DNA from: Shigella phage phi25-307
Sequence record: MG589383
Length of the DNA: 64,000 nucleotides
Strand: one strand, 5' to 3'
Part shown: one piece after another, positions 8,173 to 59,788 of the stretch
How positions within the stretch are numbered: position 1 is the stretch's first letter
Layout: each line of letters starts with the position of its first letter
Made by a program: the position numbers and the translations under genes
Notes under the pieces: generated by a model
Told to the model about the DNA's origin: nothing
Database searches by the model: none
What the model saw: the letters and a program-made list of their open reading frames with translations, nothing else

Positions 8173-8482
8173 CTAGACGGTCCACCATAGAATTGCATGC
8201 TGCCTTATCTTTAGGTTCCGCCACCGAGCATTCTAATATTTGCCATTTTTTATAGTATCTTTTAATTAAGGTAGACGCCTTGAACCTACTAGACGCCCCA
8301 TCTTTTTCTCCGTCTTTATACGCATATAACAATTTTTGTGAAAAATCTACTTTACACTCTTGACTTTTACCACAATAATCAGACGCCGTTCTGTTTGTAT
8401 ACTCCGTTACATCAGTATATGTAGTATTAGCAAGAGCGCTAAATGAAACCAAGCCAACTATTAAAGCCAACATTTTGGTCAT
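8135..8482 (-). CDS. secreted Cys-containing protein, 115 aa
   Basis: Signal peptide MTKMLALIVGLVSFSALA; four Cys; ATGA coupling to upstream gene. Confidence 0.55.
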   Translation of the reverse strand: MTKMLALIVGLVSFSALANTTYTDVTEYTNRTASDYCGKSQECKVDFSQKLLYAYKDGEKDGASSRFKASTLIKRYYKKWQILECSVAEPKDKAACNSMVDRLVDSYTRGLAASD

Positions 8483-9021
8483 TCTTTTATTTCCAGTAGT
8501 TTATTTGATTTAAGGTAATTAGCCTTTTCTAGGACTTCAGAAGCATATTTACTTCCAGCACTTGTCTTCCATCCCGCATTATATGAGGATATAGCTTTTC
8601 TTATATCCCCGTTATGTATATTTAACCAATAAGAAAATTCGATATAAGCCCATCTGGCTGAATTAGACCGCTTAGATAGCATTTTCTTAATTTGGGCATC
8701 AGTCATATTATAACCAAGCTGGTTAATTCTTGCCCTCATTGTTGGTAGATAATTTTGGAACATTCCATACGCATGGTGACCTTTCTTATCTTTAAGATTA
8801 ATACCTGCAGATGATTCCTGCCATAGTATTGCGGCCATTATGTATCCAAGTCCTTTCTTATGCATATTTTCATGCGTTTTAAATTTTCCATCCTTAGAAA
8901 ACTGTTCCCCAAACTGATAAGCATAATTCAAGTTATCGAGTTGGACATTACTAAAAGTATGCTCGGAGCTATGTGCTGATAATGAAAGAGCAAATAGACC
9001 AGCGAGTAGTGCTTTTCTCAT
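8479..9021 (-). CDS. secreted lytic transglycosylase-like (SLT-domain) protein
   Basis: Signal peptide MRKALLAGLFALSLSAHS; ILWQESSAG, GMFQ and SYNAGW motifs resemble the SLT catalytic Glu region. Confidence 0.6.
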   Translation of the reverse strand: MRKALLAGLFALSLSAHSSEHTFSNVQLDNLNYAYQFGEQFSKDGKFKTHENMHKKGLGYIMAAILWQESSAGINLKDKKGHHAYGMFQNYLPTMRARINQLGYNMTDAQIKKMLSKRSNSARWAYIEFSYWLNIHNGDIRKAISSYNAGWKTSAGSKYASEVLEKANYLKSNKLLEIKE

Positions 9022-9766: not shown

Positions 9767-10032
9767 TAGTATTTTTCCTCAGGTCGAAATACCGCACGGC
9801 ATGCCCACATGCTGGCTTCTTTTAGATGTTGCTTAGCATACTTAAGAGCCTGCACTGCATCCATATCTTCTTTGGTTTGTTGCTCTGATTCATTTTCTTT
9901 CAAGATATATGCTTCTTCAATCAGAGCATCAAACATCAATCCAAGACGGACTTCTGCGTCTTTAATAGCGTTCACTTTACTGATTTTATCATCGGTATGT
10001 GGCTTGTAGCCTTTGATGTCTTCAATCGACAT
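9766..10032 (-). CDS. hypothetical small protein, 88 aa
   Basis: ORF track frame; start refined to ATG 10030-10032 with GAGGAAA RBS (track start 10200 would overlap the upstream gene by 180 nt). Confidence 0.5.
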   Translation of the reverse strand: MSIEDIKGYKPHTDDKISKVNAIKDAEVRLGLMFDALIEEAYILKENESEQQTKEDMDAVQALKYAKQHLKEASMWACRAVFRPEEKY

Positions 10033-10246
10033 AAGGAATTTCCTCATCGGTGGCAAGGTCATATTCAACCAATTGGATAGGCTCATTAATACCATATCCA
10101 CGTACAGTGATATCGGTTGACGGATATTTTCCAGTAATATCACCCGTTCTAAATGCTTCAATGAATGATTGCTCGCCTGAGCAACTAAACCAGGCGGCAA
10201 AACATTTTAAAACATCTTCAGACCCTTCTATAATCAATTTAGCCAT
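10022..10246 (-). CDS. hypothetical small acidic protein, 74 aa
   Basis: ORF track; start overlaps stop of GrcA-like gene. Confidence 0.5.
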   Translation of the reverse strand: MAKLIIEGSEDVLKCFAAWFSCSGEQSFIEAFRTGDITGKYPSTDITVRGYGINEPIQLVEYDLATDEEIPYVD

Positions 10247-10608
10247 TATAGACTCTCAGTAAAGGTACGAGCGATAACATCGCGCTGCTGTTCCGGAGTC
10301 AGAGAGTTAAAGCGAACTGCATAACCGGATACACGGATGGTCAGCTGTGGATATTTTTCAGGATGCTTAACTGCATCTTCCAGAGTTTCGCGACGCAGAA
10401 CGTTAACGTTCAGGTGTTGACCACCTTCAATTTTAACTTTAGGTTGATGTTCAATTTCAATTTCACGGGCATTCAAACCGTAGAAAATTTCCGGGTCTAC
10501 AATAGCGTCTTCTTTAAAAGTCTTAGAGACGATAATCCGGGCTTGAGTACCGTCTTCAAAATAAATAGTGCCTTTATGTACACCTTCAAGAATTTGATAT
10601 GCTTTCAT
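10246..10608 (-). CDS. autonomous glycyl-radical cofactor (GrcA/YfiD-like)
   Basis: C-terminal ~60 aa [60 protein letters not shown] is the glycyl-radical domain (RVSGY), near-identical to enterobacterial GrcA as recalled. Confidence 0.85.
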
Positions 10609-10614
10609 ATAACC

Positions 10615-10923
10615 TCAATTAGAAAATAAATTTATCCAAGATTTTTCTTTAATCAAAAATGGGTCGGAATTAAACGCCATTAAACTTTGAGTAATTAATC
10701 CCTTAAATGACCCATCAATAAATTCCATTTTGAAATGTGGAATACTAGTCATCAACCGTGCATTAGGAGCAGTACAAAGAACATGCTGCCCTGCGAACGG
10801 ACCTTTAGTCAAACGATATCGTTTAGGTTTAAAATGGTAAATCTCATAATTTTCTACAAGAGCCCTTTTATTGCATACTGGGCTGTTATAACAATACTCA
10901 AAAACTTCAATAGTGGTCATCAT
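10615..10923 (-). CDS. hypothetical protein, ~102 aa
   Basis: ORF track frame; start refined to ATG 10921-10923 within ATGATGA overlap with upstream stop. Confidence 0.5.
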   Translation of the reverse strand: MMTTIEVFEYCYNSPVCNKRALVENYEIYHFKPKRYRLTKGPFAGQHVLCTAPNARLMTSIPHFKMEFIDGSFKGLITQSLMAFNSDPFLIKEKSWINLFSN

Positions 10924-11632: not shown

Positions 11633-11962
11633 TTATACTCTAGGCTTTTGAGCTTGTTTGGTATTGGATTCCCATGCGGCTTTGGTAATTTTGTTAGCGG
11701 CATAACCAAAGGCACTAGATAGAACACCTTTAGAGTTGAATACATCCAATCCAATAAGTACACCTGCTGTGTTAAATTTAGGAGCAAAGTACGCATTAGT
11801 TTTAGAAAGAGCTTTTTTCAATTCAGGGTCTTGAACCAAGCCATCAAAAACGCCTTTACCATTTACTTTATATGTTACTTTGGGATTTTTAGCTTCTTCG
11901 ATAGCAGCTTTCTGTTCCGCAGATAATGTAACTTCAGTGATAAACTCTTGATATGTTTTCAT
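11633..11962 (-). CDS. internal-protein-like protein with capsid targeting sequence, 109 aa
   Basis: Starts MKTYQEFITEV (T4 internal-protein CTS); start refined to ATG 11960-11962; long leader carrying promoter 12044-12073. Confidence 0.7.
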   Translation of the reverse strand: MKTYQEFITEVTLSAEQKAAIEEAKNPKVTYKVNGKGVFDGLVQDPELKKALSKTNAYFAPKFNTAGVLIGLDVFNSKGVLSSAFGYAANKITKAAWESNTKQAQKPRV

Positions 11963-12043
11963 TTTGTTCTCTCTAGGTTTAGACCATTCCATGGCCCATG
12001 AATTGTCCATTTTCCGTATTTACCACTCCAAGTAATTATGAAT

Positions 12044-12075: not shown

Positions 12076-12378
12076 TTATTTACCTTTAATTACTTTAGCT
12101 GCTTCGATAGCCGCTTGCTGAAGGTCGTCCATAGACATACCGAATTTAGAAGCAAAGTTATCAATTTTCTTTTCGACCGCATTCAAAGGCTTGGCCTGTT
12201 TACCTTCATTAGCGCCTGGAAGAGCGAGAATACGCTCTTTGTCAATATAAAGGCTTACAAGTTTCTTACGGTCTTTATCGGACAAATCATGAAATGAATG
12301 GGCCTTTTTATTTATAGCGGCTTCTAATTTACCTGCACTCACTCGAGCTTCAGTAATAAATTCTTGATATGTTTTCAT
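12076..12378 (-). CDS. ipII: internal protein II-like
   Basis: CTS MKTYQEFITEA; 100 aa; adjacent to ipIII as in T4. Confidence 0.75.
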   Translation of the reverse strand: MKTYQEFITEARVSAGKLEAAINKKAHSFHDLSDKDRKKLVSLYIDKERILALPGANEGKQAKPLNAVEKKIDNFASKFGMSMDDLQQAAIEAAKVIKGK

Positions 12379-12419: not shown

Positions 12420-12998
12420 TTAATTACCACGGGCTGCATTAGCAACGGCATAAGCGTACTGAACATTAGCGTCTTTAAACGTACCTTTAGAGGTATCTAT
12501 TTCTGCCTTAAAGCCGCCTTTAGCCATAACATCAGCAAATTCTTTACGGAAAGCCATTGCGTCAAGACCTTTCCATGATGATTTGTGCTTGGCGAATTCA
12601 AGACCAGCGTAGTTGACAGCCTTAGCTAATTTATTATCAATAACCCATTTACCGGCTTTAGGCACAAACTTCGGTCCTTTTTGTTTAGAGAACAGTTTTA
12701 AATTCCAGCGACGAAGATCACTGTCGGCTTTAACAAAAGCTGCATCTAAGTTACTAGCAACAACATCTTCAATATGAGCAAATTTAAGTCCGTCAACTTC
12801 AATATTTAGGTCGGTACGCCAGCGAAGTCCTTCCCAAGCGAAAGCTTTAAAGTCGGAAGCTTTTGTAGCTAAGTATCGTTCAAGTGGAGCAGTTTTAGGG
12901 TCAAAGCCGTTTCCACCACGATAAGTCCACTCGTCCTTATTAATGCCTTGAGCTTTTCCTGCAAAGGCCTCGGCGATAAATTCTTTATATGTTTTCAT
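12420..12998 (-). CDS. ipIII: internal protein III
   Basis: CTS MKTYKEFIAEA; 192 aa; GINKDEWTYRGGNGFDPKTAP...KAEIDTSKG matches T4 IPIII as recalled. Confidence 0.85.
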   Translation of the reverse strand: MKTYKEFIAEAFAGKAQGINKDEWTYRGGNGFDPKTAPLERYLATKASDFKAFAWEGLRWRTDLNIEVDGLKFAHIEDVVASNLDAAFVKADSDLRRWNLKLFSKQKGPKFVPKAGKWVIDNKLAKAVNYAGLEFAKHKSSWKGLDAMAFRKEFADVMAKGGFKAEIDTSKGTFKDANVQYAYAVANAARGN

Positions 12999-22371: not shown

Positions 22372-22448
<77 letters not shown>

Positions 22449-22454
22449 AATATA

Positions 22455-22528
22455 TGACCCAGACCAGATTCGAACTGGTAACCTTTCCCTTATGAGGGGA
22501 CTGCTGCTAACCGTTGAGCTACAGGGCC
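22455..22528 (-). tRNA. tRNA with CAT anticodon (Met or lysidine-Ile type)
   Basis: Acceptor GGCCCTG/CTGGGTC (one mismatch), D-loop with GG, anticodon loop CTCATAA, T-arm ACCAG-TTCGAAT-CTGGT; D and anticodon stems imperfect. Confidence 0.55.
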
Positions 22529-59345: not shown

Positions 59346-59597
59346 CTAGAACTTGATTTCTATCCAGTGCCCATCACGCTGGTCGTGATTAATTTTGTAC
59401 TGAAAGCCGTTATCACGGAACCACTCCCCGATTTGCTCGGTGATAGTTAAATCGTTCTTTGACGGATAGTACGTAAATTGTGTCTGGCCTTTGTCAGCGG
59501 CTTTCTCTGCCATCACAGAGAAGTTAGTAATAAAATCTTTCAACAAATTGGCTTTAGTGGCCAGCGCCCTTTCTCTTAATTCCTGTGCAAAACTCAT
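59346..59597 (-). CDS. hypothetical protein, 83 aa (T4 24.2 position)
   Basis: ORF track; ATGA overlap with upstream gene. Confidence 0.6.
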   Translation of the reverse strand: MSFAQELRERALATKANLLKDFITNFSVMAEKAADKGQTQFTYYPSKNDLTITEQIGEWFRDNGFQYKINHDQRDGHWIEIKF

Positions 59598-59788
59598 TTC
59601 TTCACCTTTTTGTTAATCAAACGTTTACGGTATACAACTTTTTCTTTTGCTTTAAACTTTGACCGAGCTGTCTCGGCTTTAGTCCATAGTAATCCAACTT
59701 CTTTAGGTTGTAAACCGATTTTTTGAGCAATTTCTACGAATGAAAATCCCGCCTCATGTAATGTATAAACTTCAACTTCAGCTCTCAT
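59594..59788 (-). CDS. small putative helix-turn-helix protein, 64 aa (T4 24.3 position)
   Basis: GFSFVEIAQKIGLQPKEVGLLW HTH-like; start refined to ATG 59786-59788 (track start is TTG). Confidence 0.55.
   Translation of the reverse strand: MRAEVEVYTLHEAGFSFVEIAQKIGLQPKEVGLLWTKAETARSKFKAKEKVVYRKRLINKKVKK

Follow-up and report, generated by a model that had tools for sequence, protein, structure and literature searches.

vs.6 of an RB69-like T-even phage: a probable pyruvate formate-lyase repair cofactor gene with a host-like 3' tract

The vs.6 locus and its neighbours

On the minus strand of the window, by which we mean the whole 64-kb stretch of DNA that was analysed, there is an intact open reading frame of 120 codons with an ATG start and a TAA end, which is the vs.6 gene of the T-even phages (Table 1). 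The first 25 kb of the window are ~96-97% identical to Mosigvirus genomes, and the window is that of an RB69-like (Mosigvirus) T-even phage. The vs.6 DNA is 98% identical to RB69 vs.6 (annotated as GrcA) and to the gene in many further Mosigvirus isolates; matches to it occur in 781 phage records. The gene order vs.8-vs.7-vs.6-vs.5-vs.4-regB is common to the window, RB69 and T4, with vs.1 lying beyond, and the encoded protein is identical to T4 Vs.6 (Y06I) at 112/120 amino acids (93%); the identity to T4 and RB69 and the place between vs.7 and vs.5 put it in the T-even Vs.6/Y06I ortholog group. Nolan et al. (2006, PMC1524935) found vs.6 in 6/6 T4-like genomes, and by itself the gene is nothing new, being annotated in hundreds of phage genomes.

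Table 1. Features of the vs.6 locus, in positions of the window
Feature	Position	Strand	Basis
vs.6 coding sequence, 120 aa + TAA	10246..10608	minus	ORF list, profile and PDB matches, orthology with RB69 and T4
vs.6 codons 1-60, phage-lineage N-terminal half	10429..10608	minus	divergence from E. coli grcA
vs.6 codons 61-117, host-like tract, encodes structured glycyl radical domain	10258..10428	minus	near-identity to grcA
RVSGY motif, codons 92-96	10321..10335	minus	sequence reading; alignment to 6OWR and PFL 1H16
Gly95 codon, predicted radical site	10324-10326	minus	equivalent to GrcA G102 and PFL G734
Shine-Dalgarno GAGG, putative	10613..10616	minus	4 nt 5' of the vs.6 ATG; sequence reading
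TAATG, overlap of vs.6 stop and vs.5 start	10244..10248	minus	sequence reading
vs.7, upstream neighbour in the same gene string	10615..10923	minus	ORF list; synteny with RB69 and T4
vs.5, downstream neighbour	10022..10246	minus	ORF list; synteny with RB69 and T4

The putative Shine-Dalgarno sequence of vs.6 shares bases with the vs.7 stop codon TGA (10615-10617). At the other end of the gene, the TAATG overlap suggests translational coupling of vs.6 and vs.5, and the same 1-nt stop/start overlap is also present in RB69 and T4. The final three vs.6 codons are GAG AGT CTA, where the E. coli counterpart has GAA AGC CTG, and these phage codons may form a putative ribosome-binding site for vs.5. 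Directly past the stop, at 10238-10248, the phage reads TAATGGCTAAAT and E. coli (L002, 1728-1740) reads TAAGGCTTAAGT, the extra T of the phage relative to E. coli producing the ATG of vs.5. Some megablast alignments reach 10238 with one gap included, and the homology may continue for a few bases in the host 3' UTR. In a scan for promoters and terminators around vs.6, the counts were not above those in shuffles.

Several other loci of the window were recorded on the way. The vs.1 homolog (8479-9021, minus) has a signal-peptide-like N-terminus, MRKALLAGLFALSLSAHS, and vs.1 is reported to be weakly similar to SLT lytic transglycosylases (PMC1524935). Three neighbouring minus-strand ORFs (11633-12010, 12076-12378 and 12420-12998) each have KTYQEFI(T/A)EA at the beginning (in the first ORF, as listed, at residues 17-27) and are otherwise unlike in length and sequence. 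This motif looks like the one by which T-even internal head proteins are targeted to the capsid, and the RB69 annotation has internal head proteins in the same region. A tRNA-Arg(TCT) and a tRNA-Met(CAT) lie next to each other at 22372-22528 (minus), a cluster which is presumably much smaller than that of T4.

The protein and its predicted role in the infected cell

The vs.6 protein matched the Pfam family Gly_radical (PF01228) over residues 60-101 with 67.4 bits (cut-off 22.2), and its best NCBIfam match was GrcA, TIGR04365 (IPR011140), with 159.1 bits; this score falls short of the equivalog cut-off of 170 bits because the N-terminal half is divergent. The best PDB match was 6OWR (E. coli GrcA, E=2e-42), aligned over GrcA 27-127, and the next was the C-terminus of pyruvate formate-lyase (PFL; 1H16, 2PFL) over PFL residues 696-759 with E=3e-26. 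Residues 61-120 correspond to GrcA 68-127 and are identical at 60/60 positions, RVSGY included, while 48-49/60 are shared with the PflB C-terminus; the sequence surrounding RVSGY is the same as in 6OWR and 1H16, and its radical glycine is aligned with those of GrcA and PFL. The product is a small stand-alone protein (~14 kDa) with a PFL-type glycyl radical domain in its C-terminal ~65 residues and with N-terminal ~60 residues that are weakly but clearly homologous to those of GrcA. It is not a full-length formate C-acetyltransferase (PflB/TdcE, with a ~760-residue barrel and a Cys-Cys pair), as only profile positions 679-744 of TIGR01255 were matched, with 89.7 bits against a cut-off of 994. 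The original prediction of a GrcA/YfiD-like gene at this place agrees with the Pfam, NCBIfam and PDB matches and with RefSeq, where the entry with the identical protein is named GrcA of Shigella phage phi25-307, and its judgement that the C-terminal 60 residues with RVSGY are those of enterobacterial GrcA proved exact in the comparison with GrcA and PflB C-termini which it had proposed.

The biochemistry of such proteins has been described. According to Wagner et al. (2001, PMID 11444864), as related in PMC8683613, PFL-AE activates both YfiD and T4 Y06I with a glycyl radical, and both form a complex with oxygen-cleaved PFL, by which activity is restored. YfiD and Y06I, both of ~14 kDa, are the sole validated spare-part proteins; residues 1-60 of YfiD, though disordered, are required for it to bind cPFL and to receive the radical efficiently, residues 61-127 repeat the strand, radical loop and helix of the PFL C-terminus, and a spare part has to supply the strand, loop and helix that its own target has lost (PMC8683613). 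The gene and its biochemical role are thus already known, vs.6 being the T-even spare part and the second example after YfiD.

In the mechanism that we propose, the infected cell would make the vs.6 protein, which would bind host PFL cleaved by oxygen at Gly734, with the N-terminal half assisting in the binding. The C-terminal domain (residues ~54-120) would stand in for the lost glycyl-radical loop and helix, and the host activase PflA would put the radical on Gly95 of RVSGY, so that the conversion of pyruvate to acetyl-CoA and formate would be restored. The binding, radical and repair steps were reported in vitro for T4 Y06I (Wagner 2001, via PMC8683613), and because of the 93% identity to Y06I we infer them, that is, the activase-installed radical and the reconstitution of oxygen-cleaved PFL, for the vs.6 protein. 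The GrcA-type repair of oxygen-damaged PFL that had been predicted for this gene is in line with what the same source relates of the T4 ortholog.

Once a T-even phage has infected, transcription of host genes ceases and the host DNA is broken down. An infected cell whose PFL is hit by oxygen is then without new PflB or GrcA, and the phage copy may sustain the fermentative ATP supply in microaerobic infection. Formate is reportedly the reductant of class III ribonucleotide reductase (a finding attributed to Mulliez et al. in 1995), and the formate supply of the phage class III enzyme, NrdD, might also be kept up in this way; the RB69-type nrdD/nrdG genes lie ~5 kb upstream of the window start, outside the window. 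Kinetics or regulation may differ from those of YfiD, because the cPFL-binding N-terminal half is only 28% identical.

It could be argued that the vs.6 protein supplies a glycyl-radical domain to the phage NrdD and not to host PFL as a spare part, since RB69-type phages encode nrdD and nrdG, since NrdD is likewise cleaved by oxygen at its radical glycine, and since a role of vs.6 in nucleotide metabolism was speculated on by Nolan et al. (2006, PMC1524935). However, BLASTP against RB69 NrdD gave a best E of 11, away from the C-terminus, so that no homology to the NrdD C-terminal glycyl radical domain was found, whereas the phage domain is 100% identical to GrcA and close to the PflB C-terminus. 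A spare part has to reproduce whatever strand, loop and helix its target lacks (PMC8683613), and without detectable similarity to NrdD a direct role of this kind is unsupported; we consider it highly improbable. The further suggestion in the original prediction, that the gene may serve the phage's own glycyl-radical enzymes, is unlikely on the same comparison.

A decoy or inhibitor, which would titrate PflA or block PFL and so redirect host metabolism, would suit the strong divergence of the N-terminal half, the part that governs cPFL recognition in YfiD, and mimics are often encoded by phages. Such a blocker, however, would have no need of a catalytic domain that is perfectly host-like, and T4 Y06I is reported to reconstitute PFL activity (via PMC8683613), so that we find a decoy very unlikely and retain PFL repair as the role of the protein.

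Comparison of the two halves of vs.6 with bacterial grcA

Over codons 61-120, vs.6 is identical to E. coli K-12 grcA at 174/180 bases and the 6 differences are all synonymous; within codons 61-117 there are 3/171 differences, all synonymous and all G/C-to-A/T. Codons 1-60 differ from the same gene at about half of their bases in codon-by-codon comparison (48% nucleotide identity), with 17/60 amino acids identical (28%). The maximum chi-square breakpoint lies at nt 178, with 94/178 differences to its left and 6/182 to its right (permutation p<=1e-4), and where both genes encode the same amino acid, the codon itself has changed in 8/17 cases before the breakpoint and in 6/60 cases after it (Fisher p=0.0016). 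As a yardstick, E. coli and Salmonella grcA are 89% identical in the 5' half and 91% in the 3' half (164/180, i.e., 16/180 differ), and their dS equals 0.48 in both halves, which means that both grcA halves evolve together in bacteria. For the phage 3' half against E. coli, dS comes to 0.07-0.15, and by this measure the phage 3' tract is younger than the Escherichia-Salmonella split.

Base composition and codon choice differ in the same manner, with a GC content of 0.475 in the tract, 0.35 in the vs.6 5' half and 0.379 in the window, and with CTG for 5/6 Leu codons in the tract against 9% in the window ORFs (P=3e-5). Codons 61-117 are matched at 95-99% (best 98.2%) in 5,426/5,426 complete E. 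coli genomes, and when the 64-kb window was compared with these genomes by megablast, this tract was the sole match, the alignments spanning 10238/10241-10430. The gene pflB was also considered as a donor of the tract and rejected (pflB-type sequences 136-141/180, grcA 174/180).

The same 60 residues are unchanged in Pectobacterium, Serratia, Citrobacter, Xenorhabdus, Trabulsiella, Edwardsiella and Pantoea, and because they occur in so many genera, amino-acid identity cannot prove host origin. A protein that is 100% identical to that of the host is no proof of recent transfer, as the synonymous sites alone decide. The original prediction had concluded from amino-acid identity that the gene was acquired from the host; the identity is insufficient for this, but the DNA shows the origin of the 3' half, for which acquisition from the host stands (174/180 bases, host-like codons, the latter found by the codon-usage comparison it had called for), while for the 5' half it has to be given up in favour of an old phage lineage.

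The evidence for that lineage is as follows. An N-terminal motif of 15 residues (23 in its longer form) is common to the phage homologs and was found in no sampled bacterial GrcA; other T4-like genera have it too, as do jumbo-phage contigs of ~350 kb and contigs of ~105-121 kb. Nine positions (M1, R24, K29, E33, D34, R48, E49, P56 and V58) are invariant among the phage proteins and 18 bacterial GrcAs, from which it follows that the phage and bacterial N-terminal halves are homologous, and dN/dS values of 0.14-0.18 among phages mean that the N-terminal half is under purifying selection. With this half as a query, a search of 5.8 billion proteins returned 5 near-identical fragments and nothing else. 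Judged from these comparisons, the 5' half is an old phage-specific lineage, the whole gene having been acquired long ago and the 3' tract replaced later, and vs.6 is a mosaic of an old phage 5' half and a host-overwritten 3' tract.

A recent capture of the entire E. coli grcA, after which the N-terminal half diverged fast under relaxed constraint, would also leave a C-terminal stretch of 60 identical amino acids and an N-terminal half still homologous to GrcA at nine invariant positions. It is scarcely credible, as the synonymous sites of the 5' half are saturated relative to E. coli (the 8/17 against 6/60 changed codons given above, p=0.0016), the 5' half falls in a phage-only clade together with those of distant T4-likes and of other phage families, purifying selection acts on it, and the breakpoint is sharp. 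We therefore continue with the mosaic.

GrcA-like genes were also seen in phages of other kinds. In the jumbo-phage contigs L108, L110 and L111 (345-357 kb) and L125 (235 kb), a long ORF (476-629 aa as extracted) with an NrdD-type C-terminus (RRVSGY or RRVCGY and then a zinc-ribbon-like CxxC) lies ~400-1400 nt upstream of the GrcA-like gene, and from this adjacency there could be a functional link between spare part and anaerobic reductase in jumbo phages. Contigs L126-L152 and L163 (104-121 kb, about T5-like size) carry a 122-aa GrcA-like gene starting with MKAYQNLKSG, its C-terminal domain being 48/60 identical to GrcA, with no host-like DNA tract; several families of virulent enterobacterial phages thus have spare-part genes. 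Another record, L053 (NZ_JBQPOM010000029, 253 kb), is labelled Vagococcus sp. WN89Y, a Firmicute, and contains an enterobacterial grcA of the Klebsiella/Enterobacter-type variant; this assembly is probably contaminated or mislabelled.

Host matching of the 3' tract and its probable origin

Jiaodavirus phages are close relatives of T4 and RB69, and two of them, KPV15 and KP1079, have a T4-type N-terminal half with 76% nucleotide identity to the window. Their 3' tracts were compared with those of nine E. coli phages and with the grcA of several hosts, K. pneumoniae and K. variicola included, over codons 61-113 (159 nt; Table 2). By these counts, the tracts of E. coli phages and of Klebsiella phages are each far closer to the gene of their own host than to the tract of their sister phages. 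Some bases are allele-specific, as KPV15 goes with the K. pneumoniae allele L172 and KP1079 with the allele L171, which suggests more than one event within Jiaodavirus, on the basis of 3-5 SNPs. Matches of 95-99% to the Klebsiella tract were found in 106 phage records. The groups also differ in where the patch ends on the right, which is ~codon 113 in Jiaodavirus and ~codon 117 or further on in E. coli phages.

Table 2. Nucleotide differences in codons 61-113
Comparison	Differences
Nine E. coli phage genes vs E. coli K-12	1-3/159
Nine E. coli phage genes vs Salmonella or Citrobacter	12-18/159
Nine E. coli phage genes vs Klebsiella	18-25/159
KPV15 vs K. pneumoniae (L172/L170)	2-3/159
KPV15 vs E. 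coli	19-22/159
KP1079 vs one K. pneumoniae allele (L171)	5/159
KP1079 vs E. coli	23/159
E. coli vs Klebsiella, hosts themselves	19-22/159
E. coli phages vs Klebsiella phages	18-26/159

The residues vary with the host as well, LEDAVKH being the Escherichia form and LLDAVEH the Klebsiella form. Slopekvirus KP15 has the Klebsiella-type LLDAVEH and yet differs from every host tested at ~30/159 bases, and the host-like patch was likewise not found in RB16/RB43-like, CC31-like and other T4-likes (~30/159 from each host). The patch was therefore seen in phages of two host genera only, E. coli and Klebsiella. When the Salmonella grcA tract was compared with 50,697 phage records, the top identity was 92.5%, and there was no Salmonella-type tract in this collection.

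Two records deserve a separate mention. Salmonella phage PSE-D1 (ON550260; recorded host Salmonella sp.) has a Klebsiella-type tract at 59561-59733 with 97.1% identity, and the Salmonella T-even phages retrieved with the Salmonella query showed E. coli-type similarity only, of about 91%; the tract may be more telling of the evolutionary host than of the host of isolation. In the KPV15 record (KY000080 / NC_055715; L109, 2501-2859), the frame of the vs.6 homolog is broken, with 701 nt against 702 nt in relatives, and the lost base is probably a sequencing error, otherwise a recent frameshift.

The near-identity to the host gene might be explained without any exchange after one ancient acquisition, through extreme purifying selection and shared codon bias. 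The 60-residue domain is indeed invariant across many bacterial genera, and KP15 and the RB16-like L095 keep 58-60/60 amino acids at just 80-84% nucleotide identity. Selection on the protein, however, cannot yield 1-3/159 differences to the own host genus and 18-25 to the other, with the reverse in Klebsiella phages, and bacteria under the same constraint differ from one another at 14-22/159 sites, which makes a single acquisition a highly improbable explanation and leaves overwriting by host DNA as the preferred one.

The sequence of events would be as follows. As an old resident of T4-like genomes, vs.6 would have had its codons 61-117 overwritten by E. coli grcA DNA in the Tequatrovirus/Mosigvirus lineage, through homologous recombination leaving a gene-conversion patch, and Klebsiella grcA would have overwritten the same tract in the Klebsiella-infecting Jiaodavirus; the patch would be limited to the stretch in which the phage gene and host grcA align as DNA. 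From the existence of both E. coli-type and Klebsiella-type tracts, overwriting by host grcA took place at least twice, and the direction would be from host to phage, because the bacterial grcA halves follow the species tree and because the tract has host-type codons and GC content. T-even phages recombine very actively (UvsX/UvsY), and they can rescue markers from short homologies. Since the glycyl-radical domain is so conserved, the identity between phage and host DNA would be adequate for the T4 recombination machinery, and each conversion would restore identity, so that the next one would become easier.

Taken together, the window very probably carries vs.6 of an RB69-like T-even phage, encoding a PFL-repair glycyl radical cofactor and having a host-overwritten 3' tract. 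With less assurance, though in our opinion as the likelier case, vs.6 is a standing target of repeated host-to-phage gene conversion, by which ~160-190 nt of the current host's grcA are taken up. If this is true, the tract is a DNA record of the genus, perhaps even the allele, in which a virulent phage lineage recently replicated, and conversion supplies host-matched residue variants after a host switch. In isolates of Tequatrovirus, Mosigvirus and Jiaodavirus, the mosaic is a simple sequence marker of the genus that was recently the host, and it shows that even strictly virulent phages of the T-even type, in spite of destroying the DNA of the host, acquire host sequence by homologous recombination given adequate identity. 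We found no report of the mosaic or of the host-tracking pattern in the searchable literature, the primary T4 papers being outside its reach.

Among known systems, T4 Y06I is the nearest: it too has 120 aa, its gene occupies the corresponding place in the string, and its stop overlaps the vs.5 start by 1 nt as well. An E. coli-like 3' tract is also there (T4 and E. coli differ at 4/180 bases), and of the eight substitutions between T4 and the window, seven are N-terminal and the other is R73H in T4; the tract has three phage-specific synonymous changes in the window and one changed codon in T4. With E. coli GrcA (6OWR), the protein shares the two-part architecture and the identical structured domain, the DNA of codons 61-117 being 98% identical, and its N-terminal half corresponds to the disordered cPFL-binding half of YfiD. 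However, that half is 7 residues shorter than in E. coli GrcA, 28% identical and without LLNSFWLLD, and E. coli grcA adjoins ung, whereas vs.6 sits in the phage early-region gene string. Of PflB (1H16, 2PFL), vs.6 matches the part that is lost or displaced on oxygen cleavage; just 64/759 residues are represented, with neither the catalytic barrel nor Cys418/Cys419.

For the recombination, a parallel is cyanophage psbA/psbD, for which intragenic recombination between host and phage is reportedly known (Zeidner in 2005 and Sullivan in 2006 are the names attached to it). There, too, a host metabolic gene in the genome of a virulent phage sustains a damage-prone host enzyme during infection, and patches of the gene are swapped with host alleles. 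Here the enzyme system and the hosts are different, the patch is of ~170 nt and bounded by the limits of DNA homology, and it occurs in T-even coliphages, which degrade host DNA.
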